Positions 1 through 17,710 of a DNA stretch of 17,768 nt are shown in pieces (position 1 is the first letter of the stretch; the number at the start of each line of letters is the position of its first letter). The position numbers and the translations under genes are program-made. Origin of the DNA: Leptospirales bacterium (GTDB lineage Bacteria; Spirochaetota; Leptospiria; Turneriellales; JAOUFE01); the NCBI GenBank assembly GCA_040326155.1, contig JBEQLE010000081.1:1-17768 (forward strand). Reading direction: 5' to 3'. Below the pieces are notes generated by a model, which saw only the letters and a list, made by a program, of their open reading frames with translations, ran no database searches and was not told the origin of the DNA.

Positions 1-10
1 TTAATTATTT

Positions 11-1348
11 ATGAAAGTAACTATTTTAACTGTCGGTACGCGGGGAGATGTTCAACCATGCCTTGCCTTTGGACAAGCTCTTCAAACGCAGGGCCATGAG
101 GTTAACATGGCAGCCCCACTCGACTATGAAAAGATGGTTGACGAATCTGGCTTGCGCTTCTTCCCGATTCGTCAACAGCTTCGTGATATCTACAGGCAAA
201 AAACCGGTTCTCAATGTTTAACGGAAAGAATAAATCCTCTGCATTTTTTATTCGGTAGAAATAAAAAAGTTCGTCCTATATTAGATTGTATAGTTTCTGA
301 TCTGGTCAGCGCCTGTACAGGTTCTGATATTATTTTATATACAATTTTAGCTATGCCCGCTTCGTTTATTGCAAATGACCTCGGTTTACCTTCTATGGCT
401 CTTTGCTTTCAACCTTTGAGTCGCACACAAACGTTTCCCAGCATTTTCTTTCACCCCCAGGTCAACATCAGGTTTTTGAACATTGCTTCTCACTTTCTTG
501 CCGAAAAAGCGATTCGTCTGGTTTTTCAGGGTTCTATTACAAGATGGCGAAAAAAATCCAGAATACCCAAAACGACACGCCAACATATTCATAAATACAG
601 CCATCGAGAATACCCGGTCTTAAACGCATTTAGCGCTCACATAGTCCCTAAACCGTCCGACTGGGGAAAACGAAAGCATATTACAGGTTTCTGGTTTCTA
701 GACAGCGCCATATCAAGTTGCAAGCCTTCTGGTGAGTTAATAAAATTCTTAGAAAACGGGGAACCTCCTGTTTGCATCAGTTTTGGTAGTATGAACGATA
801 TAAGAGTAAAAAAGAGAGTGAACATGGGTCTGCAAGCTCTGCAAAAAACAGGAAAAAGAGCTGTGTTAATTGCCGGTAAAAGTGGCCTGCAAAAACAAGA
901 CCTGATAATAAGTGATAACATACTGGTAGTTGACGAAGTATCTCACAAGTGGCTGTTTCCTCGTGTGAGTGCTATTATACACCATGGGGGAGCCGGAACT
1001 GTTGCGGCCGCCATTCGCGCGGGTATTGCCTCTATTATTATTCCGTTTTTTTTCGATCAAAAATTCTGGGGAAACCGTCTTTTTGCTCTTGGTGTTGGCC
1101 CACAACCCATACATGAAAAAAAATTATCAGTAGAAACAATCGCTAAAGCTATTACTGCGGTGGTCGAAGAAAGAAAGTATAATCTAAAATTACAAAATTT
1201 AAGCGTAAAAGTTAACAATGAAAAAGGTTTAGAGTGCGCAGTTAAAGCGTTTGAACTCGAAACATCTCGCTCCATTACGCAAAAAAGGGAGACAAAAAGT
1301 AAAGATGGAACAACCAAGTTCAGAAAATTCAGCAGAGCAAATTCTTAA
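11..1348 (+). CDS. GT-B fold family 1 glycosyltransferase (sterol 3-beta-glucosyltransferase/RhlB-like)
   Basis: 445 aa ORF with N-terminal GTRGDVQP motif, C-terminal sugar-nucleotide-binding box HKWLFPRVSAIIHHGGAGT...PFFFDQ and a central SFGSM motif. The 3' end overlaps the next gene. Confidence 0.9.
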   Translation: MKVTILTVGTRGDVQPCLAFGQALQTQGHEVNMAAPLDYEKMVDESGLRFFPIRQQLRDIYRQKTGSQCLTERINPLHFLFGRNKKVRPILDCIVSDLVSACTGSDIILYTILAMPASFIANDLGLPSMALCFQPLSRTQTFPSIFFHPQVNIRFLNIASHFLAEKAIRLVFQGSITRWRKKSRIPKTTRQHIHKYSHREYPVLNAFSAHIVPKPSDWGKRKHITGFWFLDSAISSCKPSGELIKFLENGEPPVCISFGSMNDIRVKKRVNMGLQALQKTGKRAVLIAGKSGLQKQDLIISDNILVVDEVSHKWLFPRVSAIIHHGGAGTVAAAIRAGIASIIIPFFFDQKFWGNRLFALGVGPQPIHEKKLSVETIAKAITAVVEERKYNLKLQNLSVKVNNEKGLECAVKAFELETSRSITQKRETKSKDGTTKFRKFSRANS

Positions 1349-3566
1349 CGCACTGAAAAAAACCAGCCTGTTTTCAGATTTCACAAATGAAACTCTGAAT
1401 AAATTATCCTTAAATGCTACATGGGTAATTTTGAAAAAAGGAGAAACTCTTTTTAACAAAGGTGACCTGGCCGACAGCATGTACCTTCTTACCGAAGGTA
1501 AGTTAATTGTAATAATCGAATCGGAGGGGGCCGGAGATGTTCTAAGAAATATTGAAGCGGGTCAAACCATAGGCGAAATGCAATTCCTGGTACACGGCAA
1601 ACGGACCGCCGACATATTTGCAGGAGACAATTCAAAAATAATTCGTTTTTCAAATATTCCACCAGATTTTACCAAAGAAGAAAAAGGTCTACTTGTAGAA
1701 AAATTAAACCAGATTATTCGTCAACGCCTCGAATATAAACAACTTGCCGCCATACTTCCAAAACTCTTTGGAGAATTAACACCAAGACAAATTGAAAAAA
1801 TCAGTACAAAAGCCGACTGGGTTCAACTACATGATGAAGAAGTACTTTTTAAACAGGGTGATCCTGGTGATAGTTTTTCCATTCTTGCCAGCGGACGCCT
1901 GAGTGCCGCTCTTGAAAATGGAGACGGTACACGGCGTGTCATTAAACAAATTTCAAGGGGACAAATTATCGGTGAGATGGCTCTACTTGGCGGTGAAAAC
2001 CGAACGGCCACAGTGTACGCCACTCATGAGTCTCAAGTATTTCGTTTTAAAAAAGAGGCATTTTCCACATTACTAAAAGAATACCCCGATTTGCTTATGC
2101 AAATTACAAGAAGTCTGGTGCAAAGACTGTCTGACTCAAATAAAGGAGTAAGCAAATGGGAGTCGAACCCCATTATAGCTCTTGTACCTGTGCATGAGTC
2201 TTCCCCTCTAAAAGAATTCGGAGCCCGATTTCTAAAAGCCATTTCAAGCATTTGCCCTGTTTTATATTTAGATGGACCAGCCATGGACGAGATGCTAGAT
2301 ACACCTGGCATATCTCAAGTCGATGAAAAAGATCCAAATAATATACGTCTACAAGAGTGGATTAGCATTCAAGAATCAAAATATGAATTTATTATTCTCG
2401 AAACCGACACTACTCCAACCAATTGGACCACATGGTGCCTGGGCCATGCTGACCAGGTTTTACTTGTTGCTGACCAGGACGAAGACAGTCAACTTGGAGA
2501 AATTGAAAACTTCCTGGAAGACAACTCGAATAAAATAGTAGTAGAAAAACGGTCTATCGCAATTTTACACCCCAATGGGGAAAAACTTCCCACAAACACC
2601 AAAAGGTGGCAAACAGAGCGAAACCTTGAATTTTGTTACCATATCCGAAATGACTCTGAAAAAGACATCGAACGAATTGCCAGAATTATCTCGGGAACCG
2701 CCGTTGGTCTGGCTTTAAGCGGCGGTGGAGCCAGGGGTTTTGCCCATATTGGAGTTATTAAAGCGTTAGAAGAGTCAAATATAGCAATCGATATTATTGG
2801 CGGTACCAGCATGGGCGCATACATCGGAGCTATGTATGCCAAAGGTTGGACTTGCGAAGAACTGGCGAGCTATGACATCTCCAAATTGATCTTTGACATG
2901 ACCCTGCCGGTCACTTCCCTGTTTGCAGGCAAAAAAATATCGAACGGGTTTAAAAGTATTTGTGGTGAAGTTGCCGTCGAAGACTTATGGATACCTTACT
3001 TTTGTGTTTCGAGTAATTTAACCAATGCAGAAATGAAAGTCCACCGAACGGGTATCTTATGGAAAAGTTTACAGGCGAGTAATGCCGCGCCAGGTATTTA
3101 CCCTCCTGTTGTTATGGATGGGGATTTACACGTTGACGGAGCCCTTCTTAATAATCTGCCTGTAGATATTATGGGCGAAATCTGTCAGGGAAACGTTTTA
3201 GGGGTGGATGTAAGCCCTGCAGTCGACATGAAAGAAAACCCAAATTATGGAGATCATATTTCCGGCTGGAAAATATTATGGAGAAAAATTAACCCTTTTG
3301 TAAAACCCATCATTATACCAAGCATTCAACATATATTACACCGAGCCGGTGAATTGGCCAGTATAGCCAACCAGAGAAATATGCTGGCTCAAACAACCGA
3401 CTTATACCTTAGACCTCCGGTTGAAAAATATGAGCTGGGCGACTACGCCCTTTCTGAGAAAATTATTGAAGATGGATACCAGTACGCAATGTCCAAAATA
3501 AAAGAGTGGAATTTAAGCGACAACCTCGATAAAAATCTTAAAGCAAACCTTAAAAAACAGACTTAA
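1305..3566 (+). CDS. Cyclic-nucleotide-binding, patatin-like phospholipase (NTE/RssA family)
   Basis: Two cNMP domains (LFNKGD...IGEM...RTA; LFKQGD...IGEMALL...RTATV) followed by patatin motifs GGGARG, GTSMG (nucleophile Ser) and DGA. Start placed at ATG 1305, with GGAG about 13 nt upstream. The ORF track starts at TTG 1251. Confidence 0.9.
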   Translation: MEQPSSENSAEQILNALKKTSLFSDFTNETLNKLSLNATWVILKKGETLFNKGDLADSMYLLTEGKLIVIIESEGAGDVLRNIEAGQTIGEMQFLVHGKRTADIFAGDNSKIIRFSNIPPDFTKEEKGLLVEKLNQIIRQRLEYKQLAAILPKLFGELTPRQIEKISTKADWVQLHDEEVLFKQGDPGDSFSILASGRLSAALENGDGTRRVIKQISRGQIIGEMALLGGENRTATVYATHESQVFRFKKEAFSTLLKEYPDLLMQITRSLVQRLSDSNKGVSKWESNPIIALVPVHESSPLKEFGARFLKAISSICPVLYLDGPAMDEMLDTPGISQVDEKDPNNIRLQEWISIQESKYEFIILETDTTPTNWTTWCLGHADQVLLVADQDEDSQLGEIENFLEDNSNKIVVEKRSIAILHPNGEKLPTNTKRWQTERNLEFCYHIRNDSEKDIERIARIISGTAVGLALSGGGARGFAHIGVIKALEESNIAIDIIGGTSMGAYIGAMYAKGWTCEELASYDISKLIFDMTLPVTSLFAGKKISNGFKSICGEVAVEDLWIPYFCVSSNLTNAEMKVHRTGILWKSLQASNAAPGIYPPVVMDGDLHVDGALLNNLPVDIMGEICQGNVLGVDVSPAVDMKENPNYGDHISGWKILWRKINPFVKPIIIPSIQHILHRAGELASIANQRNMLAQTTDLYLRPPVEKYELGDYALSEKIIEDGYQYAMSKIKEWNLSDNLDKNLKANLKKQT

Positions 3567-3584
3567 AGCCTGAAAGGTTTTCTT

Positions 3585-4619
3585 ATGAGCATGTTCCGTT
3601 CTATTTTGAAAAAAACAGGTCTAAAAGTCTGGGCAGGTCTGTTCATCATTTTTTTATTTTCTTTGTGGGCATTTTACAATTACGATTTTCACTCCGTTTT
3701 TCTTTCTATTTCAAGAGCGAATTACACACTAATTACTTTCGCTGTGTTTCTAAATATTTTTCTGTTATATTTTCGAGTTTTAAAATGGCGTTTTTTCTTC
3801 ACCCCGCACAACACTATTTCTTTTTATAATATGTCTTTAGCCGCTTTTTGCGCCTACACGCTTAACATGGTATTTCCGGCGAGGGTGGGCTTGTTTTTAC
3901 AGGCCTGGATTTTAAGTAAAAAAGAGTCCATTCCTAATAGTTCCGCTTTAGGTACGGTCGTTTTAACCAGAGTTTTAGACGGCATTGCCATTGCCTCTAT
4001 TGGGCTTTTTGTCCTTCTTCTTGCAAAAGAAGAGGCTGGTGCGGCCGATTTCTGGTCTCCATTACAGAAAACTGCTATTATATTCTTTTCGTTATACCTG
4101 ACGTTTGCTCTGGTTTTTTTTATTCTTGGCAAACATGAAACCCTGCATTTGAAAGTTTCAAAAGTTCTAAAGAAAATTCTTCCAAAACGTTTTAAGGAAA
4201 AAACAGATAAGGCAATTCTCTCTTTTCGCGAAGGCATGAATGTAGTCAATCGTCCCGGTCAGCTTGCCTTTATATTTGCTTTGACTTTTATTTTCTGGGC
4301 CTTGTGCGCGCTATGGATTTTCATTTTTCTAAAAGCTTTTGGAATTTCCGAAATCTCGTTCTTAACCCCTTTTGTCATTTTAGTTATACAGGTTTTCGGC
4401 TTTGCTATTCCGGTTCCCGGCAATATTGGCCCTTACCATGCGGCAACCGTGGTGGCCCTCTCGCTTTACGGTATCGTGGGCGAATTCGCCCTGTCCATAG
4501 CCATTACCATGCATGGGGTTATCCTCATAACAAACAGTTTGCCCGGCCTGCTTTACATGTGGTATGAAAAAGTACGTAACCCTGAATTTTCTCCCAAAAT
4601 AATGAACCAGATAAAATAA
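3585..4619 (+). CDS. Lysylphosphatidylglycerol synthase TM / UPF0104 (putative flippase-like) membrane protein
   Basis: 344 aa with many hydrophobic segments and family-typical motifs R-x-x-KW, N-x-x-FPARVG, R-x-x-D and P-x-PGNIG-x-YH. Confidence 0.8.
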   Translation: MSMFRSILKKTGLKVWAGLFIIFLFSLWAFYNYDFHSVFLSISRANYTLITFAVFLNIFLLYFRVLKWRFFFTPHNTISFYNMSLAAFCAYTLNMVFPARVGLFLQAWILSKKESIPNSSALGTVVLTRVLDGIAIASIGLFVLLLAKEEAGAADFWSPLQKTAIIFFSLYLTFALVFFILGKHETLHLKVSKVLKKILPKRFKEKTDKAILSFREGMNVVNRPGQLAFIFALTFIFWALCALWIFIFLKAFGISEISFLTPFVILVIQVFGFAIPVPGNIGPYHAATVVALSLYGIVGEFALSIAITMHGVILITNSLPGLLYMWYEKVRNPEFSPKIMNQIK

Positions 4620-4837
4620 AATGTTGGCAGGCAAAGTGCCAGGTATTTTTGAATTGTAAAGGCATTCTATTCCAAAAGTCTGCACTGCGGAATGCTACCG
4701 CACTACAAAACGGTATATTATTTTAAAGTTTCTATTTTCATTATTTTCATATGATTTAAAATAGTAGACGATGACAGTAAATTTTGAAAAACGTTATTTG
4801 TACGTACCAAAAAAAGTAAAATCTTGATAACTTATCC

Positions 4838-7800
4838 ATGAGAAAATTGCAACAAAATCTACTTCCTTTAAGCGCCCTGCAAAAAGATATTGCCATAGAC
4901 CAACTCTCGCACCCTCATATTCCAATTTATAACATTGGAGCCTGGCTAAAAATTGAAGGTGAAATTAACACTGAAGTGTTTAAAGATGCTACATGTAAGG
5001 TTATTGAAGCCAACGATAGCCTCCATATCGTTTTTCGTAAACACAACATATTACCGCTGCAGGAATTTCAAAAACCGAAAAAATTCAACTACAACTTTAT
5101 TGATTTTTCCAATTCGCCGGACCCGGAATCTCACACCCATCAGTATATGCACACCGAATTTGTTCGTCCGTTTGCTTTATACGACAACCATTTGTATCGT
5201 TATTCTTTGGTTAAAACCTCCGACACATGTTATTATTTTTTAACTGTGCAACACCACATCATTATGGACGGTTTTTCGAATAGCCTGGTCTTCTTGCAAA
5301 CTGGTGATCTTTATCGCAAGCTAACAAACCTGGAAAATATAGACGATGAACTAACGAAGCGACCCTCTTACAAAAAGTTCATTACCGAAGAGATTCAATA
5401 CCTGAAGTCTGAGAAGTTTTCTAAATCGCAGGAATTCTGGAAAAACGAATTTACGACTTTACCTCAACGAGTTATACAGCAAAACCATGAAGAGCCTGGC
5501 TCTGCGGAATCTTTTCGCGGCAGTGTATTTTCATACCCCTTGTCCTTGGAACAATATAATAGATGGCGTGAATTCAGCAGTTCTCAAAACTGTACGCCCT
5601 ACCATCTGTTTGTGGCTGCTCTTTATATCTATTTTCAAAGAACAAACCCTGCACATAATTTTGTTTTCGGAGCCCCCGCCAAAAACCGACCGGGAGCGAC
5701 CGCTAAAATTACCACTGGTCTTTTCACCAACATTACCCCCGTCAAATTAAACGGAGACTTAAACCAGACAACAGAAGATCTGTTAGCCAACATTGTGCGA
5801 AAACTGCGTTCCACCTATCGTTACCAACGCTACCCCATTGGTGAAATAAACAAAATTACCGGTATTCGCAAATCGGGCTACGACCAACTGTTTGACATTG
5901 TTGTATCGTATGAAAACTTCGACGTGGACGCGAATTTCAATAATGGTCCCGTAGAAGTGCAAACACTGAATAACGGTTATGTTCGAAACTCTTTGTCTTT
6001 GGCAATTAAAGAGTATCATGTAAAGCAAGGGCCAAAAATAGAGATGGCTTTTAATAAGGGGGCTTTTACCCAGCCCGAAATGGATGAGCTTATAGAAAGG
6101 CTCAAATTTATTATTGACCAGATGGTAATTGCCCCTGGCAGTAAATTAAACGATTTTGAACTTGTACCGAAAGAAGAGAAACAAAAAATACTGAATTTCG
6201 GGAATTTGAATGACCAAAAAATAAATCTAACCGACGAAAAGCAAACCGTCGATCAAACTCATTTTCAAAGTTGCTTTCACCTGTTTGAAAACATAGTAGA
6301 AAAAAACCCCGAATCTCTTGCCGCCATTTGCCAAGGTGTCTCGGTTACATATTATGAATTAAATAAAAAAGCAAACCGTCTGGCCCACTACCTTAGCTCA
6401 CTCGGTATTCAAACCGAAACCTTCGTTGGAATCCATATGGATCGTTCTTTAGATATGCTTATATCCATACTGGCGGTTTTAAAATCGGGAGCGGCCTATG
6501 TGCCTTTAGATCCGTCTTACCCGATCGAGCGCATCGACTTTATGATCGCCGATTCGCAGGCCGCTCTTATTTTAACACAATTAAAATACAAAGAACGGTT
6601 TGCAGGAGCTTCAAAAAAGGAAAATATTCAAAACAGTGGTAATCAGCAAAAATATATTTATATTGACGATTATAACGGTGCCCCGCCCTGGGCCGACCAA
6701 AGCGAAGAAAATCCCTCTTCAGGTCATGTCGAAACAGCCAGCAAACTCAACTTGCCCGAAACTCCCGTGTATATAATTTACACCTCCGGTTCAACAGGAA
6801 AACCCAAAGGGGTTGTTAACCTTCATCGAGGACTATCGAATTTAGTTGCGGCCCAAAGTAAGGTTTTCAACATTAAACCCGGTAGTCGTATTTTACAATT
6901 TACCTCGCTCAGTTTCGATGTCGCCGCCTCTGATATTTTTACCACTCTTTGCGTGGGGGCCACTCTTGTTCTCGAAACGGCAGAAAATATTTTACCGGGA
7001 ACGCCGCTGGCAAACACCATAAAAAAATTCGAAGTCACTCATATAGCCATGCCTCCTTCTTCTTTGACGGTAATGCCCCCTTTAGCCGAAAACGATTTAG
7101 CCTCCTTAACCACTATTATAACAGGCGGTGAAACGCCCCCTCTGGAACTTTTTAAAAAATGGAGTTCCGGTCGAAAAATATTTAACGCCTACGGGCCCAC
7201 CGAAACAACGGTCTGTGCATCCGTCTGGGAATATGAGCAAAGCTCCAAAAAACCGTTTATTGGACGCCCTCTGGACAATGTAAAAATCTACATATTGGAC
7301 AATAAATTACAAATTGTTCCAACGGGAGTTTCGGGCGAACTCTATATTTCAGGGGTTGGTCTGGCCCGTGGTTATCTGAATCGTGAAGAGTTGACCAAAG
7401 AGAAGTTCATACGCAACCCTTTTTATACTGACGAAATGGACTCTATCTACACTCGTCTTTACAAAACCGGTGACATGGCCAGGTACCAACCCGACGGTAA
7501 TATTGAATTTCTCGGGCGCACTGACTCGCAACTGAAAATACGCGGTTACCGAATTGAACTCGAAGAGATAGAAGCTGTATTACGAAAACACCCCCTTGTC
7601 GAAAACGCAGTTGTAACCGTAATTGGTTCTGGTTTGCAAGGTAAAAAAATTGCCGCCTATGTTCTTACTTCCGAAAAATCTAAAACAGAACTCGACCATC
7701 TCGAATTAAAACTATTTTTAAAAAACAAACTTCCGCCTTATATGGTGCCTGTTTTCATAACAGAGCTTAAACAATTTCCATTGACTGCAAATGGGAAAAT

Positions 7801-8887
7801 TGACAAAACCCAATTGCCCGACCCTCGTGCAAACAACGAGAGCAGCGATAGCATCCAAAACAGAAAAAATAACAAACAGCGTCGTAAAAACACGGCCATT
7901 GAAAATAAACTTATTGTTATATTGAAAAAAGCAGCCAGTATAAACCATATACAAATAGATGAAAATCTCTTTGACGCCGGTTTGGACTCCTTAAACGCCA
8001 TTGAATTTTTATTGCAGATCGAAAAAGAGTTTGCCGTTAAAACTCATAATCGTCTATTAATTCACCATGATACAATTGAACTCTTGGCCAACCACCTCGG
8101 GCATAAAACCAGCTTACCGAAAGCTGCAAACAATGAAAACGCAGACCCAAACCTGCACCCCATGATGTTAGCGATGTCCGGGAAACAAAACGATGGAGCG
8201 ATACAAACTACCGAAACACCATTTTTTTGTGTCACCGCAGGTTATGGCGATATTATTGCGTTAAAAGCTCTATCGCAGCAAATTGGCCCGCAACGTCCTT
8301 TTTACATTTTGCAACCCTCCGATGATGTCGCCGCGAATATTGACGCGAAGTCACTCGCTTTATTATACCTTGCTGAAATACAAAAAACAGACCCTTCGGG
8401 AACTTATTTGTTAGGCGGCTATAGCGCAGGAGGCATTATTGCTTTTGAAATGGCCCAGCAATTAACAAAAGAGAGCAAGAACGTTGCACACGTTGTTATG
8501 TTGGGAATTCCGTTTACCCATGGCGCTTTCGGTGTCAGGCTTCGAAATATATTAAAGGGGGCATTATCAAAACTTATATCTGAAAATAAAAATACAAAAT
8601 ATGAAATTGTAAGAATTCTTAAATCTCTGTTTTTAGACAAGGGTTTACAAATTCATATGAACAGCCTGGCAGGTTATCTGCCAAAACCATACTCTGGAAA
8701 AATTTCAATTTTTGAAGGGTGTCAGGCACCTACCAGGTTCCTTCCCTGGGAGAAAAAATGGAAAAGAATTGCCAGGGCGGGTGTCGATATTCAGTTTCTA
8801 GCTGGAAGCCATGATACTTTTATACGCCCACCCGAAAACATCGAGCTTGCCAAACGCCTTAATGAACTATTTAAAAATTCGCAATGA
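4838..8887 (+). CDS. Monomodular non-ribosomal peptide synthetase, C-A-T-TE
   Basis: C domain HHIIMDG (5252-5272). A-domain cores YIIYTSGSTGKPKG, SFDV, NAYGPTE, GELYISG, YKTGD and NGKID. Carrier LFDAGLDSL (Ser 7988-7990). TE GYSAG (Ser 8423-8425) and GSH. Confidence 0.95.
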   Translation: MRKLQQNLLPLSALQKDIAIDQLSHPHIPIYNIGAWLKIEGEINTEVFKDATCKVIEANDSLHIVFRKHNILPLQEFQKPKKFNYNFIDFSNSPDPESHTHQYMHTEFVRPFALYDNHLYRYSLVKTSDTCYYFLTVQHHIIMDGFSNSLVFLQTGDLYRKLTNLENIDDELTKRPSYKKFITEEIQYLKSEKFSKSQEFWKNEFTTLPQRVIQQNHEEPGSAESFRGSVFSYPLSLEQYNRWREFSSSQNCTPYHLFVAALYIYFQRTNPAHNFVFGAPAKNRPGATAKITTGLFTNITPVKLNGDLNQTTEDLLANIVRKLRSTYRYQRYPIGEINKITGIRKSGYDQLFDIVVSYENFDVDANFNNGPVEVQTLNNGYVRNSLSLAIKEYHVKQGPKIEMAFNKGAFTQPEMDELIERLKFIIDQMVIAPGSKLNDFELVPKEEKQKILNFGNLNDQKINLTDEKQTVDQTHFQSCFHLFENIVEKNPESLAAICQGVSVTYYELNKKANRLAHYLSSLGIQTETFVGIHMDRSLDMLISILAVLKSGAAYVPLDPSYPIERIDFMIADSQAALILTQLKYKERFAGASKKENIQNSGNQQKYIYIDDYNGAPPWADQSEENPSSGHVETASKLNLPETPVYIIYTSGSTGKPKGVVNLHRGLSNLVAAQSKVFNIKPGSRILQFTSLSFDVAASDIFTTLCVGATLVLETAENILPGTPLANTIKKFEVTHIAMPPSSLTVMPPLAENDLASLTTIITGGETPPLELFKKWSSGRKIFNAYGPTETTVCASVWEYEQSSKKPFIGRPLDNVKIYILDNKLQIVPTGVSGELYISGVGLARGYLNREELTKEKFIRNPFYTDEMDSIYTRLYKTGDMARYQPDGNIEFLGRTDSQLKIRGYRIELEEIEAVLRKHPLVENAVVTVIGSGLQGKKIAAYVLTSEKSKTELDHLELKLFLKNKLPPYMVPVFITELKQFPLTANGKIDKTQLPDPRANNESSDSIQNRKNNKQRRKNTAIENKLIVILKKAASINHIQIDENLFDAGLDSLNAIEFLLQIEKEFAVKTHNRLLIHHDTIELLANHLGHKTSLPKAANNENADPNLHPMMLAMSGKQNDGAIQTTETPFFCVTAGYGDIIALKALSQQIGPQRPFYILQPSDDVAANIDAKSLALLYLAEIQKTDPSGTYLLGGYSAGGIIAFEMAQQLTKESKNVAHVVMLGIPFTHGAFGVRLRNILKGALSKLISENKNTKYEIVRILKSLFLDKGLQIHMNSLAGYLPKPYSGKISIFEGCQAPTRFLPWEKKWKRIARAGVDIQFLAGSHDTFIRPPENIELAKRLNELFKNSQ

Positions 8888-8894
8888 GCTTACT

Positions 8895-9800
8895 CTATTT
8901 CCAGTTATATTCGGCGTCGGCAATTAGCTCTCCGTCGTGTATAACCTGAGTGGCTGCATTTGGCATTTCCACTTTAAACGTATCATCCGATTTCAAAACA
9001 TTATTCAGTGTAAACCCGTGAGAACTCATGAACTCTTCAATACTCTCTTTTTTGGAAGTCCAGTTTAACGGTTCACTTTTCAGTTTAAGATAAAGCGGTA
9101 GCAAAGGACCATAGTTGTGTTTACCTTCTTCTTTCGGACGAACAAAGGTAAAAATAAAGTGGCATCCGTTTTTACTGAGCTCTTTTACAGAAGTAAGTAA
9201 AACTCCAATCTCTTCTGGAGTAAGATACATTAAAACGCCTTCCACTATAAAAACAGTACGTAATTTTGGGTCATACCCTTTGTAGCTGGTTAATTTTTCT
9301 TTCAGTGTATCTTTTGTAAAGTCGATGGGAACCAGCGAAAAATTTGTTAATTTGGTACCTGACTCATCTGCCATTTTTTCAATGGCTTCTTTTTTTACAC
9401 GTTGCGTTGCCGGATGATCCATCTCAATAAAATGCACCTTGGAATGGGCAGGCGCCAGACGAGAAAAAAGACTGTCAAAACCGGCACCAAGGTTCACCAC
9501 CTGTGTTGCCCCGCCTGAAATAGCGTTTTCAACAAAACCCTCTATTGTATGTTTGCGTAAAACATAATGAGCAGCAAGCCCCGGCATCAAAAGTTTTTCC
9601 ATAAAAGGAAAAAATACACGATAAACGGCCCCGTTCACTTGATTGTACTTTTTACGTCCCTCTGGTGTAGAATTTAGAACACTTGTATAAAAACTTTTTT
9701 CCTCAGCTTTTACCAGCCCTTTAAATTGTTTACGCCGGTCTGTTAACAAAACTCCCTGAGCTACGCTAAACGCTGTTGAACTTACTTCATTTTCTTCCAT
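8895..9800 (-). CDS. Class I SAM-dependent methyltransferase, leucine-carboxyl-methyltransferase (LCM)/TcmP-like
   Basis: Motifs VSSTA (N-terminal), QVVNLGAGFDS, EMDHP, IDF and EGVLMYL are typical of the LCM family. Good RBS upstream. Confidence 0.85.
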   Translation of the reverse strand: MEENEVSSTAFSVAQGVLLTDRRKQFKGLVKAEEKSFYTSVLNSTPEGRKKYNQVNGAVYRVFFPFMEKLLMPGLAAHYVLRKHTIEGFVENAISGGATQVVNLGAGFDSLFSRLAPAHSKVHFIEMDHPATQRVKKEAIEKMADESGTKLTNFSLVPIDFTKDTLKEKLTSYKGYDPKLRTVFIVEGVLMYLTPEEIGVLLTSVKELSKNGCHFIFTFVRPKEEGKHNYGPLLPLYLKLKSEPLNWTSKKESIEEFMSSHGFTLNNVLKSDDTFKVEMPNAATQVIHDGELIADAEYNWK

Positions 9801-9806
9801 ACTGAA

Positions 9807-9812
9807 ACCTCA
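9807..9812 (-). promoter_or_regulatory. Shine-Dalgarno site of the methyltransferase
   Basis: TGAGGT on the minus strand, 6 nt upstream of the ATG at 9800. Confidence 0.6.
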
Positions 9813-9977
9813 CTATAATTTTTTTATTAAATATATCATAGACAATAATACAAACCAATTTCATATTGCAACCCTTTTTACTTGTTTTGATTTTCGGCTA
9901 TATTGCCATGTTGAGTTGAAGGACTTGTATGTTAACTCGGTCGCTTTACGTACTATATACCAATATTGTATAATTGC

Positions 9978-11156
9978 TTATTCTTTAGCTCGAAACAAAA
10001 GTTTGAAACCGGTTGACCCGACAATTGCCCCGAGCATGGAGCATAAAATAATGCCGTTATAAAATGTTTCGGTAAATATATTTAAAGAATAACCGAGTTG
10101 TCCAATTGCCACAAGCATTGTAAGGGGGGCGGCAAGAATCAGGGTGATGCCTGTAAAGTTTCGAACGGTATGTAAGAGTCCCCGCCCTTTTAATAATGGA
10201 ATAAAGCCAATTGTAATTATACCACGCAGCAGCAATATAATACCATATAACGCCAAAGCGATTAAGAGACTCGATTGAAATCCCCCTGACGTAAAGTGAA
10301 AGTCCCAACCTATTTTTATAAAAAAGAAAGGTATAAAAAAACCATACCCGATGGAAGATAATTTTTTTTCAAGCTCAGCTTTACTTCGAAATACATAAGA
10401 CAAGATCATCCCACCGATAAAAGCTCCGAGTATTAATTCCAGTTTGAAAAAAGCTGCCATGGCAACCATGCTCATTAAAAGTAAAAATGACAACCTGACG
10501 GACAGTTCAGATGTATCGCCATCACCGGACAGGTCCAATACGCTTTTGGGGGACCACCAGAAAAAAAGCAATATCAGTCGAATTAAAACATAGGCGCCCA
10601 GAGCGAGCAACACAACTCCAGAAAGGTTTATCGCGATCGAATATACATCGGCGCCGCCTGAATGTTCATAAACTTCAAATACGATCATACCGATAATACT
10701 GAAGAGTTCCCCGACCGATGTAACCAGTATCAAGTTTTGCCCCAGGGAAGATTTTTCACTTTTGGCATTTTTTAGCGCAATAAAGGGCACCCCTACGGAG
10801 ATGGCCGTTATCGGTAATATAACATATATGCCGATAGGTTGTCCGATAAAATACCAGACAATGTAAGATATTACATATAAAAGTATGAGCGCGAGACCCG
10901 CCATGAGTATTTTTTCTCTTGAGAAAAAGTCAAAATTTATTTCGAGGCCGGCTAAAAAGAGTAAAAAGATAAACCCCATTTGTGAAAGAAAGTCAATTAA
11001 GTAAAGGTCTTCTGGCGCATTGGTAAAAAAGGATTGAACCGCCATTCCAAATATAATTTCACCAACTATTCCGGGTATGAACAACCACCGGTTTATAATG
11101 GGAACAAAGAAAGCCCCGAGGGCGAATATAAAAAGGTATATTGCAAATGAATCCAT
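9978..11156 (-). CDS. Cation:proton antiporter, CPA2 (KefB/KhtU-like) membrane subunit
   Basis: 392 aa, almost wholly hydrophobic, with motifs P-x-IVGEIIFG, LLFLAGLE, LGAFIGG and GFFIPFFFI-x-IG. Confidence 0.88.
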   Translation of the reverse strand: MDSFAIYLFIFALGAFFVPIINRWLFIPGIVGEIIFGMAVQSFFTNAPEDLYLIDFLSQMGFIFLLFLAGLEINFDFFSREKILMAGLALILLYVISYIVWYFIGQPIGIYVILPITAISVGVPFIALKNAKSEKSSLGQNLILVTSVGELFSIIGMIVFEVYEHSGGADVYSIAINLSGVVLLALGAYVLIRLILLFFWWSPKSVLDLSGDGDTSELSVRLSFLLLMSMVAMAAFFKLELILGAFIGGMILSYVFRSKAELEKKLSSIGYGFFIPFFFIKIGWDFHFTSGGFQSSLLIALALYGIILLLRGIITIGFIPLLKGRGLLHTVRNFTGITLILAAPLTMLVAIGQLGYSLNIFTETFYNGIILCSMLGAIVGSTGFKLLFRAKE

Positions 11157-11160
11157 CTGT

Positions 11161-12696
11161 TTAAACCGGCAAAAGTAATATACTGCCTCGAAATTTTTTC
11201 GCGAGAAGTTTTTCCGGTATGGGGGGATTTAAAAACCTCGCTTTTTTTTCTACAGGGTAGGATAAAACGAGAAGTTCATTAGTGGGAACGACTTTTAAAG
11301 TTTCGTGTACGGGATTGCCAGTGACGATTTTTTCTTCTATTAGTAATCCGTAAAGCGCCGCCAACTCTTGTACCGACTGTAAAGCATTTTCAAGCGCCGT
11401 TAATTTTTCTGAACTTGTTATTTCTTCAGGTGGATTTACGAGTACCGCACGCACAGGTAATTCAAACTTTTTGGCGGCGTCGAGAGCCAACTCGGCCGCT
11501 CGCAGTGAACCTTCTATGTCGGAAACGTATATCGTTATTCGGGTCAGGGACTCTTTGTCGCCTTTCATAAACCACACAGGAGAGTTATTTTTTCTGGCTT
11601 CATTTAGTAGTTTCTTTTGAAACAACCATCTGTGTTTTACGCGATGAAAATAACTATTTGGCTCTTTATATAAAATAAGACCAAACCGGTTCGCCTGGAA
11701 TAAAGAACTTAAATAGGCTCTTAAACGAAAAGGACTGGAAGTGTGGTATTTAATATTTTTGACCATATGTTCTGGCCAGGTATCGGGGTAATCTACCGAT
11801 TGTACGGACTCTCTGAGTTCTTCGGTTCCAGTCAGGAAGGCTACATCGGTTGGTTCCATATTCTTTAGTAACCATTCAAACTCTTCTTCAAGATGAAGGG
11901 CAGATTTTGAATCGAGGCTCATGACCAGGACCAGGTCTCCATGTCTTTGTGGAAAAACTGACGCCCCCGCTTTTAAATACTGGGCTGTCGAACGCAGTAA
12001 ATATGGATCGCCGATGAGTATTATTTTATCGCCGGTTTTTGGCACCGTGTTTCCATTGGGTATAATAAACTTATCTTCTTTAGATACCTCAAAATTTCTT
12101 AAATAAGCAAGAGCTGAGCTTAAACCAAGTTTATGTTTAGGACGGTAAATAGCCCCAATAATCCATTGTTTTGGCGGTAGGTCTTTGAGTGGTTTTCCAA
12201 CCAGGGGGGAACTACTGGTTAACTCGATCTGGATAATCTCACCTAACCCTTTGCCAATATTTAAAGCTACGGTTTCTCCAAAGTTCATCTGGTTTAAAAT
12301 CATATTAGCCATTGTCTCGTATGGAGTTACGACAAAGGTTCCGGTTTGGCGAATAGTTTCAGCTAACTTTTGGTTATTTATTCTGACAAATATATTTTTC
12401 AGTTTAAACCGTTTTTTAAGTATATTAATGATCTCTTCGCAGGTCTCATCATCATTTATGGTTATTAGAATCTGGTACGCAGTTCCGATGCTGGCTCTTT
12501 CGAGGGTGATATAACTACTTGCATCGCCCTCAATTAAAATAACCGTGTCGGTGTGTTCTTTTTCAATAAAAATAGATTTCAATTTTTTAGGATTTATATC
12601 GATTACAGTTAATCGCCAGGAAGCTTTTAACCTTTCCGTCAATATTCTTCCCGTTCTACCGGCCCCTATTATTCCAATCAGTGGTTTATTACTCAT
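11161..12696 (-). CDS. RCK (TrkA-N + TrkA-C) regulatory protein with C-terminal universal-stress-protein-like domain
   Basis: N-terminal Rossmann motif GIIGAGRTG and GDAS...LERASI. TrkA-C motifs SPLVGKPLKDL and IPNGNTV...GDKI. C-terminal GSLRAAELALDAAKK...GNPV resembles USP. Lies 4 bp upstream of the antiporter. Confidence 0.8.
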   Translation of the reverse strand: MSNKPLIGIIGAGRTGRILTERLKASWRLTVIDINPKKLKSIFIEKEHTDTVILIEGDASSYITLERASIGTAYQILITINDDETCEEIINILKKRFKLKNIFVRINNQKLAETIRQTGTFVVTPYETMANMILNQMNFGETVALNIGKGLGEIIQIELTSSSPLVGKPLKDLPPKQWIIGAIYRPKHKLGLSSALAYLRNFEVSKEDKFIIPNGNTVPKTGDKIILIGDPYLLRSTAQYLKAGASVFPQRHGDLVLVMSLDSKSALHLEEEFEWLLKNMEPTDVAFLTGTEELRESVQSVDYPDTWPEHMVKNIKYHTSSPFRLRAYLSSLFQANRFGLILYKEPNSYFHRVKHRWLFQKKLLNEARKNNSPVWFMKGDKESLTRITIYVSDIEGSLRAAELALDAAKKFELPVRAVLVNPPEEITSSEKLTALENALQSVQELAALYGLLIEEKIVTGNPVHETLKVVPTNELLVLSYPVEKKARFLNPPIPEKLLAKKFRGSILLLPV

Positions 12697-12910
12697 AATT
12701 ATATTTGACGCTGTTCTTGACCGGTTTGGTCATTGTTTTTGGACTCCATATTTGTATGAATCTATAATCTCTGTAAAGCGTCAACTTTTTAAACGGCTTT
12801 ATTTGTATCTATTCATAGAAAATTACCAGTAAAGTTCATTTCTATTGATCATATCTATTTTTTACACCTTTTGGCAAAAAAAAACCGCATACTACCACGG
12901 TAATATAAAA

Positions 12911-13005
12911 GGGGAAGCGGAGGACCGGGCGGGGCTTGCCCCGCTTGGGCCGTAGCGGGGGGAAAATGAATAATACGGGAAGAAAACCAGGCGATTTCCC
13001 CGCTT
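12911..13005. repeat. GC-rich palindromic cluster (REP-like or terminator-like hairpins)
   Basis: Perfect hairpin GCGGGG-CTTG-CCCCGC (12929-12944). AAGCGG (12915-12920) pairs with CCGCTT (12941-12946), and AGCGGGG (12954-12960) pairs with CCCCGCT (12998-13004). The surrounding intergenic DNA is AT-rich. Confidence 0.55.
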
Positions 13006-13027
13006 ATAGCTTAAAATTTCGACTTTG

Positions 13028-14140
13028 TCAGGTGGGTAATTTCTCATCTAGGTATTTAAAATAAATGTCCGTGATGGTTAAAAACACAGCAATAATCAGG
13101 GGACCATAAAAAATCCCTATGATGCCAAAGGCGGACATTCCGCCGATAATGCTGAAAAACATTAAAAAGGAATTCATGCTGACATGCTTACCCATAAACA
13201 GGGGCTTAAACCAGTTTTCGGTAACAAGGGAAACTACCGTGCAATATATAAAAAGAATAATTGCAGCCGTTGTCTGCCCTTGAAAAAAAAGATAGAGTGA
13301 GGCGGGTACCGAAATTACTGAAATTCCAACCAGGGGAATAAAGGCGAGCACAATCATGGTGGTTGTCCATAAAGTTAAAGATTCAAACCCCGCTATCCAG
13401 AAACCAATGCCGGCAAGCCCACCCTGGATGACTCCTCCAATCCCATTAAAAACAAGGGTGGCAAAATTCATTTTGTTTACCGTATCGATAATTCGTTCTT
13501 CGTGTTCGTCCTTCAAAGGAAACAGTTTCAAAAAGTAAACTTTTAGACTTGGTCCTTCCAGAAAAATTGCATATATAAGAATTTGCATCAACAAAAGAGA
13601 AAACAAAAATTGTAGTAGATTGCTCAACAATGCGTTCAGAGAATCCAACGCTAAAACCAGACCCGATTTCAGACTGGCATTAATCCACTTCTCAACTTCT
13701 ACCGGTGTAAATTCAATACCAAAATAACCAAGAGTTGACTTGAGCCCGCCGGCAAAAGCGTGGTCCCCGAAAAGAATATTCCCGATAAAGTCACTTCCCC
13801 CCTCCCCTTGAATAAAATTATAAATGCCAAAAACCTCTTTTGCAAGTTGTGTAATAATATAGATAAAGGGAAGAGTAATTACAAGCAAAATAAATACCGA
13901 GAGAATCATCGAGCTGACTTTGCGGCTAAGTCCCGTTTTTCTCATAAGCAGGTTCAACAGGGGGTAAAAAGCGCCGGCAATAATAAAACCCATAATGGCC
14001 GGAGTTAGATAATCGTATACGGTATAAATAACGAGCAACCCCGAAAGAGATAGAATAATTAAAAAAGCCCTCTGTTGTGACCCCGTAGAAACTCCACGCG
14101 CCTTCGCAGCCCTGTTTTTATTTTTCTTCTGTGAACTCAT
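13028..14140 (-). CDS. AI-2E family (PerM/TqsA-like) permease
   Basis: Multi-TM protein with motifs AFIPLVG, ENWFKP and GGMSAFGIIGIFYGP. The start is uncertain: ATG 14140 chosen, alternatives are ATG 14161 and GTG 14197. Confidence 0.88.
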   Translation of the reverse strand: MSSQKKNKNRAAKARGVSTGSQQRAFLIILSLSGLLVIYTVYDYLTPAIMGFIIAGAFYPLLNLLMRKTGLSRKVSSMILSVFILLVITLPFIYIITQLAKEVFGIYNFIQGEGGSDFIGNILFGDHAFAGGLKSTLGYFGIEFTPVEVEKWINASLKSGLVLALDSLNALLSNLLQFLFSLLLMQILIYAIFLEGPSLKVYFLKLFPLKDEHEERIIDTVNKMNFATLVFNGIGGVIQGGLAGIGFWIAGFESLTLWTTTMIVLAFIPLVGISVISVPASLYLFFQGQTTAAIILFIYCTVVSLVTENWFKPLFMGKHVSMNSFLMFFSIIGGMSAFGIIGIFYGPLIIAVFLTITDIYFKYLDEKLPT

Positions 14141-14201
14141 CGAACTTTTTAAAGAACTCATGCAAGGACATATACTATTTACATTTGGCTGCTGCACCTG
14201 T

Positions 14202-14217
14202 TATTTTCAATGGGGGG
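14202..14217 (+). repeat. 16-bp direct repeat, copy 1 (TATTTTCAATGGGGGG)
   Basis: Exact match to 17652-17667. Confidence 0.85.
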
Positions 14218-14381
14218 GGGATGGGAGTAGCGAGCCTCCAGGTATTGATTCTCTAAATGGAAACTTGTGGCTGCGCGTTTTGAATATATTATTATAGTGA
14301 CAGGTATTTCTCCTATTCCAGAATATTAAAGTGTCTTTGAATCTTCTTTACGGGACATATATGCCTTAAAATAGAAACTAC

Positions 14382-15344: not shown

Positions 15345-15567
15345 GTTTTTCTAGTAAAGCAGTTTGTTTTGCAAAAGAGTGATCCGTCTAACCCAAAAAC
15401 CAGTTGATCTTTTATCATATATATGCCTCTATTTATTATCACTCTTACAACTTATATTTAATTATTTTAGCAGATTCAAAGTTTTGACGAATATTCACAA
15501 AAAACAATGTTTTATTGAGTAAAATCACGTTGCCCGCCGCATATGAGACCTTTTTGACACGGATCAG

Positions 15568-17654: not shown

Positions 17655-17667
17655 TTTCAATGGGGGG
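17652..17667 (+). repeat. 16-bp direct repeat, copy 2 (TATTTTCAATGGGGGG)
   Basis: Exact match to 14202-14217, located at the 5' breakpoint of the RHS-like fragment. Confidence 0.85.
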
Positions 17668-17710
17668 AAGTTTCCCCCCTCGCCCGCACATGGTTGCGGC
17701 CTACCCCCTA
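17662..17710. repeat. GC-rich double hairpin, possible end of a repeated or mobile element
   Basis: GGGGGGA-AGTT-TCCCCCC (17662-17679) and CCGCA-CATGGT-TGCGG (17684-17699), then CCTACCCCCTAC (GTAGGGGGTAGG on the minus strand). Confidence 0.55.

Follow-up and report, generated by a model that had tools for sequence, protein, structure and literature searches.

The DNA analysed here (the window, 17,768 nucleotides of a Leptospirales contig) begins with four plus-strand genes at positions 11-8887, which encode a family 1 glycosyltransferase (GT), a patatin with cyclic-nucleotide (cNMP)-binding domains, a flippase-like membrane protein and a nonribosomal peptide synthetase (NRPS), as read from the ORF list together with Pfam and NCBIfam (Table 1). 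Domain calls are matches above the curated cut-off of Pfam, and likewise of NCBIfam for its TIGR models. The first-pass annotation of this DNA had described four co-oriented genes, the first two overlapping and the others set off by gaps of 18 and 218 bp. Both gaps are exact (3567-3584 and 4620-4837), all four genes lie on the plus strand, and the overlap is 98 nt with a patatin start at TTG 1251 and 44 nt with one at the in-frame ATG 1305, the start that agrees better with the N-termini of patatin homologues. The four named genes stand, but the four-gene extent does not, as a methyltransferase gene of the LCM type on the opposite strand, convergent with the NRPS gene and leaving 7 bp between the stop codons, is part of the same cluster and makes five. 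The upstream edge of the cluster is out of view because the contig begins 10 bases before the GT.

Table 1. Genes and spacer of the cluster, with the lines of evidence behind each assignment.
Feature	Position	Strand	Evidence
GT1 (GT-B) glycosyltransferase, 445 aa	11..1348	+	Pfam, PDB relatives, related loci
NTE-type patatin lipase with two cNMP-binding domains, 753 aa from ATG 1305	1305..3566 (TTG ORF 1251..3566)	+	Pfam, motifs
MprF-flippase-like membrane protein (LPG_synthase_TM / UPF0104 / PplT) without synthase domain, 344 aa	3585..4619	+	Pfam, NCBIfam
AT-rich spacer ahead of the NRPS gene, 218 bp	4620..4837	.	ORF and signal scan
Single-module NRPS, 1349 aa	4838..8887	+	Pfam, motifs, code
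LCM / TIGR00027-type SAM-dependent methyltransferase, 301 aa	8895..9800	-	Pfam, NCBIfam

The spacer contains no plus-strand ORF of at least 30 aa and no MbtH-like or MbtH-sized gene. Its terminator-like hairpin (4624-4642) and promoter-like site (4735-4762) are supported only by agreement with the consensus, and the promoter/terminator scan finds promoter-like sites no more often in the sequence than in shuffles (24 versus 21.3). For positions 1-9800, neither a sequencing run nor an RNA dataset is among the matches listed. The contig (C151) has a GC content of 39.7%, against 39.6% for the genome, and its tetranucleotide distance ranks at the 69th percentile among 55 contigs of comparable length. 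A binning error was considered for this contig and set aside, GC and tetranucleotides giving no foreign sign, which is not proof of nativeness.

The NRPS had been described as a single C-A-T-TE module, and all five Pfam domains occur in that order above cut-off: Condensation (237 bits), AMP-binding (283), AMP-binding_C (41), PP-binding (43) and Thioesterase (61). The C domain spans approximately 4853-6193, the A domain 6284-7798, the T domain 7910-8098 and the TE domain 8222-8824. They carry the motifs HHIIMDG (C), GLDSL (T) and GGYSAGG (TE), and the A-domain code runs from D694 to K987. Across the 13 NRPSs of the family, HHxxxDG, G[LM]DSL and GGYS[AL]GG are intact in 12 to 13, one member being cut before the TE domain. 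A PPTase candidate, a 229-aa frame, is encoded elsewhere in the same genome.

Codes of ten residues were read off the alignment by motif anchors and by PheA numbering. Nine of the 13 family members carry DAST[VI]AAVCK, two (the window NRPS and its relative P0002) share DVSAIGAVCK, one has DSSTIGAVCK and one DAWTVAAVCK. Three of the ten residues in the window code differ from those of the family majority, and it equals no code that could be checked. DASTVAAVCK is what we take to be a classical Tyr code, an assignment that was not found in open full text, and DAWTVAAVCK is assigned to L-Phe by SANDPUMA in the lunaemycin preprint. In all 13 members the A domain is predicted to be of the aromatic, Tyr/Phe type. 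Among the structure matches of the window A domain, five LgrA entries rank above 1AMU.

The C domain starts at residue 6 of the NRPS, and no separate carrier, A-domain or ligase gene is found in the window or among the annotated neighbours of six related loci. It is therefore N-terminal in a first module, with no carrier domain ahead of it and no separate aryl or peptidyl carrier in the cluster, the position of a starter C domain. When the C-domain profile of the family was compared with PDB chains, the starter domain of RzmA (7c1k/7c1h/7c1p) came out on top at 175-181 bits, followed by BacC (167) and TycC (147), with the SrfA starter (121), EntF (121) and CDA-C1 (109) lower down. The margin over an internal C domain is about 14 bits for the family profile, and with the window C domain alone as query BacC outscores RzmA. 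Among solved structures the closest to the family profile is a starter domain, and the C domain is tentatively read as starter-like on that basis.

RzmA, the rhizomide synthetase (PDB 7C1H), is described as using acyl-CoA directly through this domain, from a cluster without ACP and ligase genes (PMC7804268). The window cluster likewise lacks genes for an ACP or an acyl ligase, so that here too the acyl group probably comes straight from acyl-CoA. The two proteins share an N-terminal C domain with HHxxxDG, but the similarity is modest (~180 bits) and the chain-length gate residue differs. In contrast to the lipopeptide of RzmA, the window product would be one N-acyl amino acid, because the single module ends in a TE domain. 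In RzmA, R148 is reported to set acyl length, a large side chain giving a short chain. At the aligned position the window has N, P0002 has H and the other family members have T, I, Y or F, the bulky residues occurring in the Desulfobacter and Magnetocorallium members, and this position does not predict a long acyl chain.

P0002 is a close relative (65% identity, on a 13,348-bp contig) and the sole one returned by a word-based protein search with the NRPS, which missed family members at 36-43% identity. An exhaustive C-domain profile search (alignment A2) placed only P0187 and P0217 as single-module proteins of ~1300 aa among the best 150 listed, and gave no family size because the summed C-domain scores of multi-module NRPSs swamped it. 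Genome contigs searched with the NRPS alone gave 44 pattern matches, none upheld by tblastn.

In the GT, EryCIII-like_C, Glyco_transf_28 and UDPGT all exceed the Pfam cut-off, and two stretches are conserved, GTRGD in the N-terminal part and HHGGAGT in the C-terminal part. With N- and C-terminal domains and full-length similarity to solved members, it falls among GT1 (GT-B) enzymes of the sterol-glucosyltransferase or MGT-like kind. Its best solved relative is the yeast sterol 3-beta-glucosyltransferase (5xvm/5gl5; E 1e-48 over residues 2-427), an enzyme that works on a membrane sterol hydroxyl, and the vancomycin enzymes GtfA, GtfB and GtfD (E 1e-22 to 1e-31) are also among the best. The methyltransferase scores 113 bits against Pfam LCM and 127.9 bits against NCBIfam TIGR00027, both above cut-off.

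The membrane protein matches LPG_synthase_TM over its full length (residues 15-321 to profile positions 1-302 of 302, 134 bits) and TIGR00374, the flippase-like domain of NCBIfam, also above cut-off. It is a member of the UPF0104 / PplT family, to which the flippase domain of MprF belongs, and is predicted to translocate lipid. No tRNA-dependent synthase domain of the MprF type is present in this protein, which has the transmembrane domain only, or in the ORFs of the window.

The patatin ORF contains cNMP_binding in two stretches, NTE_Ploop and Patatin, with GGGARG, GTSMG and DGA conserved and both GE...R[ST]A loops intact, which places it in the NTE type (GGGxRG, GxSxG, DG[AG]). The domain order is that of the NTE family and the Ser-Asp dyad is intact, but the window enzyme is bacterial and is encoded inside a biosynthetic cluster. 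PADLOC matches it to Pycsar/CBASS effector models through the cNMP (E 2e-22) and phospholipase (E 2e-6) parts only. As no nucleotide cyclase is found by Pfam or NCBIfam among the ten ORFs of the window, a defence-system reading was rejected.

The cluster recurs in other bacteria. Fourteen related loci were seeded by the flippase-like protein alone (relatives at 38-71% identity) and then scored for the other genes. The NRPS is present in 12, the patatin in 11, the GT in 10 (37-50% identity) and the methyltransferase in only four, and most absences are contig ends. The first-pass annotation had proposed a synteny search and made its reading depend on whether NRPS homologues ever occur with the GT, patatin or UPF0104 genes. 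Such co-occurrence is found in 10 to 12 of the 14 loci and in at least four other lineages, so that this test does not refute the reading. Hosts include Nitrospinia/Nitrospinales MAGs, a Latescibacterota MAG, Ca. Magnetocorallium, Desulfobacter curvatus DSM 3379 and other Desulfobacterales, in addition to metagenome contigs. Since the same gene set recurs in distant phyla, the grouping is beyond chance.

Gene order varies, running GT-patatin-flippase-NRPS in the window with the methyltransferase following on the opposite strand, methyltransferase-NRPS-GT-patatin-flippase in Nitrospinia, and a reversed patatin followed by flippase-NRPS-GT in Desulfobacter. In three loci (L019, L021 and L022) a methyltransferase homologue at 38-44% identity immediately precedes either the NRPS or a radical SAM gene, and L023 has a homologue at 31%. 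Each of the four proteins is most similar to that of the window in Nitrospinia, less so in Latescibacterota, then in Magnetocorallium, and least in Desulfobacter, a shared ranking that fits inheritance as a unit. Nitrospinia loci are flanked by MMPL (RND), LolA_like, DUF1302 and two FA_desaturase genes, and among the annotated related loci no ABC or MFS exporter recurs next to the cluster.

Some loci depart from this picture. In L023 no patatin was found within 10 kb, although the other three genes are there. L020, from a Nitrospinia genome, has the flippase-like gene without an adjacent NRPS, and the NRPS and GT are on another contig. The NRPS frame is broken in three of 12 loci (L019, L024 and L030), which points to gene decay or to errors in assembly. 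G470, a genome reached by way of the NRPS, was discarded as an independent locus, being the same genome as L024, and G357 holds a distant variant only, on a 3,956-bp contig. No orthologues were found in 40 kin genomes or in the 189 other genomes of the class sample, so that the cluster occurs in one of 190 class genomes; in the order of G190 it occurs in three of 301. Because it is rare and was not found in the sampled kin, the cluster would be a clear-cut example of the transfer of a lipid pathway from one phylum to another.

Amino-acid-containing lipids and glycolipids alter the charge, permeability and recognition of bacterial envelopes. The preferred reading, to which we give about an even chance, is that the five genes move together between distant bacteria and produce an envelope glycolipid that contains an amino acid, namely a glycosylated N-acyl aromatic amino acid. 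From the gene content we infer each chemical step, the order of the steps and the location of the product. The A domain would activate an aromatic amino acid of the Tyr/Phe type and load it on the T domain. The starter-type C domain would then N-acylate it, with primary metabolism supplying the acyl-CoA or acyl-ACP, and release by the TE domain would leave the N-acyl amino acid at the membrane's inner face. The GT would glycosylate this hydrophobic acceptor on a hydroxyl group, in the simplest case the Tyr phenol and otherwise a 3-hydroxyl on the acyl chain, and the methyltransferase may cap the product, the free carboxylate being a guess. The flippase-like protein would bring the lipid into the outer leaflet, from where the RND/MMPL, LolA-like and DUF1302 set that adjoins the cluster in Nitrospinia may carry it further out. 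Finally, the patatin, gated by cyclic nucleotides, might cleave or transfer an ester-linked acyl group, so that the lipid is remodelled or removed on a cAMP or cGMP signal.

The order of acylation, glycosylation and flipping had been put forward in the first-pass annotation. The starter-like C domain, the sterol-glucosyltransferase relative and published operons that pair a GT with a UPF0104 protein support this logic; its chemistry is conjectural and the role of the patatin only proposed. The same annotation had cited two precedents that do not hold as given. Brabantamide, offered as a glycosylated lipo-amino acid, is according to its description a lipopeptide with two amino acids, which the NRPS joins into a dipeptide (PMC4493835), and for the glycine-glucolipid of Alcanivorax, offered as a known product of an NRPS and a GT, the pathway is stated not to have been elucidated (PMC10710537).

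A different product could come from the same enzymes. They may make a secreted small molecule, a short- or medium-chain N-acyl Tyr glycoside acting as surfactant, signal or antibiotic, with the membrane protein as its exporter and the patatin as an immunity or activating esterase, which is considered unlikely. Pairs of an NRPS and a GT are known for secreted glycosylated lipopeptides, brabantamide among them. In Pseudomonas sp. SH-C52, braABC likewise joins an NRPS to a GT for a glycosylated product of the lipo-amino-acid type, but the sugar is on a 3-hydroxy fatty acid, the third gene encodes a Baeyer-Villiger monooxygenase, and flippase-like, patatin and methyltransferase genes are not part of the system as described (PMC4493835). 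The window NRPS, for its part, has one module, and Pfam finds no monooxygenase gene in the window. Myxotyrosides A and B of Myxococcus sp., isolated as natural products, are Tyr-derived, rhamnosylated and fatty-acylated (PMC2854365), the chemotype that the preferred reading predicts as well, and they show that it exists in bacteria. No Myxococcus locus is among those recovered. To our knowledge no gene cluster has been assigned to the myxotyrosides, and a link to this one is only a lead. The bulky gate residues of the Desulfobacter and Magnetocorallium members suggest shorter acyl chains, and the cluster is patchily distributed and rare, as genes of secondary metabolism typically are. Against a secreted product stand the missing conserved exporter, the LolA_like, DUF1302 and fatty-acid desaturase-family genes of the Nitrospinia loci, and the link of the UPF0104 family to membrane lipids in the cases described (10.1101/2022.03.11.483950; PMC12713373).

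Lipid aminoacylation by a tRNA-independent analogue of MprF or Dlt is similarly improbable. Here the GT would first glycosylate an existing membrane lipid, the NRPS would add an aromatic amino acid to it, and the flippase-like protein would expose the result. The amino acid might be N-capped by the C domain, and the acceptor, reached through the TE or C domain, might be a glycolipid or a phospholipid. We know of no NRPS system in which a TE transfers its product to a lipid, which counts against this alternative, as does the minor role that it leaves to a C domain whose best solved relative is a starter domain using acyl-CoA. The cluster is without an acyl ligase or ACP and the gate residue gives no long-chain prediction, both of which suit it. 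The membrane protein also shares a Pfam family with the flippase half of MprF, an enzyme that places an amino acid on a lipid and then flips it, the family being reported to flip aminoacyl-PG there (10.1101/2022.03.11.483950). MprF, though, relies on a tRNA-dependent synthase, whereas the window has NRPS activation and a predicted aromatic amino acid rather than Lys or Ala. In addition, the two characterised operons that combine a GT with a predicted flippase of the UPF0104/YbhN type, gpgSDF of Pseudomonas aeruginosa, which makes GlcN-PG, and hexSDF of Clostridium difficile, cited as analogous, modify lipids that already exist, and therefore favour lipid aminoacylation (PMC12713373). In that account their GTs belong to GT4, act on PG or a diradylglycerol glycolipid and are accompanied by a deacetylase, and lipid translocation by GpgF is stated to be unverified even there. 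The window GT belongs to GT1, and no deacetylase is found in the window or in the annotated related loci, which leaves only the pairing of a GT with a UPF0104 protein in common; an NRPS, a gated patatin and a methyltransferase take the place of the rest.

That the patatin, with or without the flippase-like protein, forms a separate module beside the NRPS-GT pair, either a Pycsar/CBASS-like effector or a phospholipid-remodelling pair, is very improbable: the PADLOC matches, the patatin-less L023 and the opposite orientation of the gene in Desulfobacter speak for it, but those matches span generic domains only, the window lacks a cyclase, the NTE_Ploop domain of the NTE family is present, and the patatin stays by the cluster across phyla despite rearrangement.

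The preferred reading of an envelope glycolipid can be made more specific, and in that form is offered tentatively, as possible rather than probable. The product would be an undescribed envelope lipid, an O-glycosylated N-acyl-Tyr/Phe that is built by an NRPS, exposed by an MprF-type flippase and controlled by a cAMP/cGMP-dependent lipase, all encoded by a mobile cluster. The first-pass annotation had not recognised the four-gene combination from any characterised cluster, and a full-text literature search likewise gave no description of this gene set. The amino-acid lipids known to us so far are made by dedicated acyltransferases or by MprF. If the reading is correct, a Tyr-based glycolipid made by an NRPS and served by its own flippase and signal-gated lipase would constitute a new route and a new head group. 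The NRPS would replace the usual aminolipid N-acyltransferases, the lipid would be methyl-capped in some hosts, and it would be the first membrane lipid with turnover wired directly to a cyclic-nucleotide signal. The cluster would also behave as a mobile unit, spreading through at least five lineages of bacteria from marine and sediment habitats. As the gene set is present in the cultured Desulfobacter curvatus DSM 3379, the prediction is directly testable by lipidomics.

The GT1 glycosyltransferase (GT), the patatin, the MprF-flippase-like protein (FLP) and the nonribosomal peptide synthetase (NRPS) of the window recur together in other bacteria. Co-occurrence was seeded with FLP relatives alone, using an alignment of 16 of 24 matches (E 1e-56 or better, except P0074) to reach the DNA around FLP relatives in nine genome loci and five metagenome loci, and the window proteins were then run by tblastn on all 14. 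The NRPS was found in 12 of these loci, the patatin in 11, the GT in 10 and a homologue of the convergent methyltransferase in four, a synteny comparison that upholds the grouping of the first four genes proposed in the first-pass annotation. By record title, the hosts comprise members of Nitrospinia/Nitrospinales and Latescibacterota, Ca. Magnetocorallium paracelense, and Desulfobacterales that include Desulfobacter curvatus DSM 3379.

Contig ends account for most of the missing genes: one contig stops 150 bp past the FLP gene (L028), one begins 40 bp ahead of it and stops within the NRPS (L029), and a third also stops within the NRPS (L031). Two absences are genuine. The Ca. Magnetocorallium locus (L023) reads FLP-NRPS-GT with no patatin within 10 kb, and in a Nitrospinia MAG (L020) a protein with NACHT and FGE-sulfatase domains occupies the patatin's place upstream of the FLP gene; this MAG carries the NRPS and the beginning of the GT on another contig of 5.5 kb. 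NRPS reading frames are broken at three loci, in one of which (L024) the GT frame is broken as well; these may reflect assembly errors or decay.

The order GT-patatin-FLP-NRPS with a convergent methyltransferase in the window becomes methyltransferase-NRPS-GT-patatin-FLP in Nitrospinia and methyltransferase-radical SAM-NRPS-GT-patatin-FLP in Latescibacterota, and in Desulfobacter the patatin lies on the opposite strand, followed by FLP-NRPS-GT. Since the genes are kept together despite this reshuffling, a common function is well supported. The GT, patatin, FLP and NRPS (percentages in that order) also all lose identity to the window along the same series of lineages, from the Nitrospinia locus L021 (50, 48, 48 and 43%) through the Latescibacterota locus L022 (46, 46, 42 and 42%) to the Desulfobacter locus L026 (40, 28, 38 and 37%).

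The window is the entire contig C151 (17,768 bp) of a draft genome that totals 4.26 Mb over 171 contigs and is 94.7% complete. With only 10 bases ahead of the GT gene, the contig leaves the upstream edge of the cluster out of view. The intergenic gaps of 18 bp and 218 bp reported in the first-pass annotation are exact, and all of its domain names stand, each above curated cut-offs. The patatin gene most likely starts at an in-frame ATG that is preceded by GGGAGA 12 nt upstream and from which the N-termini of its homologues align; the gene would then overlap that of the GT by 44 nt.

Features of the window and of related loci, with coordinates in each contig or locus
Locus	Feature	Coordinates	Strand	Basis
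Window	GT1 glycosyltransferase	11-1348	+	Pfam/NCBIfam above curated cut-offs
Window	Two cNMP-binding domains, NTE_Ploop, patatin	ORF 1251-3566, likely start ATG 1305	+	Pfam/NCBIfam above cut-offs
Window	Full-length LPG_synthase_TM protein, without synthase domain (FLP)	3585-4619	+	Pfam/NCBIfam above cut-offs
Window	NRPS, C-A-T-TE	4838-8887	+	Pfam/NCBIfam above cut-offs
Window	Methyltransferase	8895-9800	-	LCM/TIGR00027 type
Window	CPA2 cation/proton antiporter, separate TrkA_N/TrkA_C protein, then AI-2E family transporter	9978-12696, 13028-14197	-	
Window	Integrase-core (rve_3) protein, 320 aa	14382-15344	+	IS3, IS481 transposase models below threshold
Window	748-aa ORF	15445-17691	-	FG-GAP repeats, TcdB_toxin_midN, start of YD repeats
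L019	NRPS, frameshifted	2402-6225		
L024	NRPS, frameshifted	10998-16072		
L030	In-frame stop within NRPS	4363-4445		
L020	NACHT + FGE-sulfatase-domain protein	345-3122		
L021	Flanking genes	59-1465, 11097-15353		
L030	Flanking genes	15-1334, 11141-13627		
L020	Flanking genes	5210-8516		
L020	RhuM-family gene	6014-7024		
L022	Radical SAM gene	702-2432		
L023	Radical SAM genes	6462-8369, 8700-10052		B12-binding
L026	HDOD-HD-GAF-GGDEF protein	5677-7740		
L032	HDOD-HD-GAF-GGDEF protein	5881-7869		
L047	Distant variant cluster	2-3954		

The NRPS family is intact in its motifs, with HHxxxDG and the carrier serine kept in all 13 alignable members and GGYS[AL]GG in all 12 that extend into the TE domain. 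Specificity codes of 10 residues were taken from the alignment by motif anchors and GrsA-PheA numbering, on which the positions rest; spacing between the anchors is consistent, except that the window NRPS and its close relative P0002 share a loop insertion of three residues. Nine members carry DAST[VI]AAVCK, one DAWTVAAVCK, one DSSTIGAVCK and two (the window and P0002) DVSAIGAVCK. We take DASTVAAVCK to be a classical tyrosine code, an assignment for which the full-text literature search returned no support. DAWTVAAVCK was assigned to L-Phe by SANDPUMA, according to the lunaemycin preprint. Judged from the 13 codes, the A-domain family looks aromatic, mostly tyrosine; the window code departs at three positions, which makes its own aromatic assignment less certain. 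Among solved A domains, ApnA-A1 gives the best single-domain match (388 bits), ahead of GrsA (374 bits). The window genome holds two PPTase matches, one within a 229-aa frame.

We give roughly even chances to a pathway in which the cluster makes a glycosylated N-acyl aromatic amino acid: the NRPS would form the N-acyl aromatic amino acid, the GT would add a sugar to it, most simply at the tyrosine phenol, the methyltransferase would cap the product in some hosts, the FLP would expose it and the gated patatin would remodel or remove it. All of this chemistry we infer from the genes, motifs, co-occurrence and type of A-domain code that are observed. Bacterial fatty-acylated, rhamnosylated tyrosine-derived compounds, the myxotyrosides, are described in a review (PMC2854365).

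The acyl group would be attached by the C domain. Against solved chains, the C-domain family profile ranks three entries of the rhizomide synthetase starter C domain (RzmA-Cs) on top at 175-181 bits, followed by BacC (167), TycC (147), and SrfA-Cs and EntF (121); with the window C domain alone, BacC comes first and RzmA-Cs second. RzmA-Cs (7C1H) is described as an acyl-CoA user from a cluster without an ACP or ligase gene (PMC7804268), and both genes are likewise absent from the window cluster. In RzmA, the R148 side chain is reported to set acyl length, a large residue giving a short chain (PMC7804268). At the corresponding position the window has N and other members have H, T, I, Y or F, so this rule does not predict a long acyl chain. 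A secreted N-acyl-tyrosine glycoside, as opposed to an envelope lipid, is a rather unlikely product: the Nitrospinia clusters are flanked by an MMPL/RND gene (fragment), LolA_like and DUF1302, likely an outer-membrane lipid export set as judged from these families, plus two fatty-acid-desaturase-family genes in L021. The window genome has four LolA_like genes outside the cluster and no match to DUF1302. In L020, LolA_like and DUF1302 are separated by an inserted RhuM-family gene.

The best solved relatives of the GT are yeast sterol 3-beta-glucosyltransferase (E 1e-48, near full length) and vancomycin GtfA/B/D, which would fit an enzyme adding a sugar to the hydroxyl of a hydrophobic acceptor. 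The FLP belongs to the same family as the flippase half of MprF, members of which are proposed in a preprint to be general translocators of lipids that are often fused with GTs or neighbour them (10.1101/2022.03.11.483950). In Pseudomonas aeruginosa, gpgSDF (GT, deacetylase and UPF0104 protein) is reported to make GlcN-PG both in its own host and in E. coli, with C. difficile hexSDF cited as its analogue; the flippase activity of the UPF0104 protein is predicted, and stated by the source to be unverified (PMC12713373). An MprF/Dlt analogue, in which the GT glycosylates an existing lipid that the NRPS then aminoacylates, would make use of the same FLP family; we consider it unlikely.

In the patatin, GGGARG, GTSMG, DGA and both cyclic-nucleotide loops are intact; Desulfobacter patatins have a single cNMP domain, compared with two in the window. 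These domains would also suit an unrelated neighbour such as a Pycsar/CBASS-like effector, but this is very unlikely, as PADLOC matches are limited to the generic domains and no cyclase is present in the window. Two Desulfobacter-type loci encode a signalling protein with HDOD-HD-GAF-GGDEF domains beside the patatin, which may be coincidence between close relatives.

The solved relatives of the methyltransferase are weak (ML2640, Rv0731c), and that it methylates a carboxylate would be a guess from the family name. Latescibacterota and Ca. Magnetocorallium have radical SAM genes within or alongside the cluster, a hint of extra C-methylation or another kind of tailoring there.

Every part of the cluster falls in a known family. 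The pairing of NRPS with GT is known from brabantamide and that of GT with UPF0104 from gpgSDF, but the five-gene set differs from both and lacks their defining features, as it does those of MprF and Pycsar. No description of the five-gene combination was found in full-text searches, which covered the main text of openly accessible papers. The prediction is testable, as a cultured organism, D. curvatus DSM 3379, holds the patatin, FLP, NRPS and GT genes (L026).

Among 40 kin genomes searched, no orthologues of the NRPS, GT or FLP were found, the best matches being another NRPS (29% identity), a GT (29%) and flippase-like proteins (23-28%). The profile of the NRPS C-domain family matched only the window's own genome within a class sample of 190; in the order to which the Desulfobacter genome belongs, it matched three of the 301 genomes sampled (five candidates scored per genome). 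The nearest relatives come from the environment: the window NRPS shares 65% identity with P0002, the patatin and FLP of L028 are 79% and 71% identical, and the FLP of L029 is 61% identical. In GC and tetranucleotide composition the contig is typical of its genome, and an old horizontal acquisition is the simplest reading. L047, on a contig of 3,956 bp, carries a distant variant in which genes for a GT1, a metallophosphoesterase and a CxxCxxCC protein precede an NRPS C domain; its proteins are 29-31% identical to those of the window.

Beyond the methyltransferase, the antiporter and separate TrkA_N/TrkA_C protein resemble a split Kef system; these and the AI-2E gene do not recur in the related loci. 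The integrase-core gene is the contig's sole mobile-element gene, 4.6 kb from the cluster. The 748-aa ORF resembles the N-terminal portion of a Tc/Rhs-type toxin protein, and its end abuts the transposase gene, so the toxin gene may be truncated.
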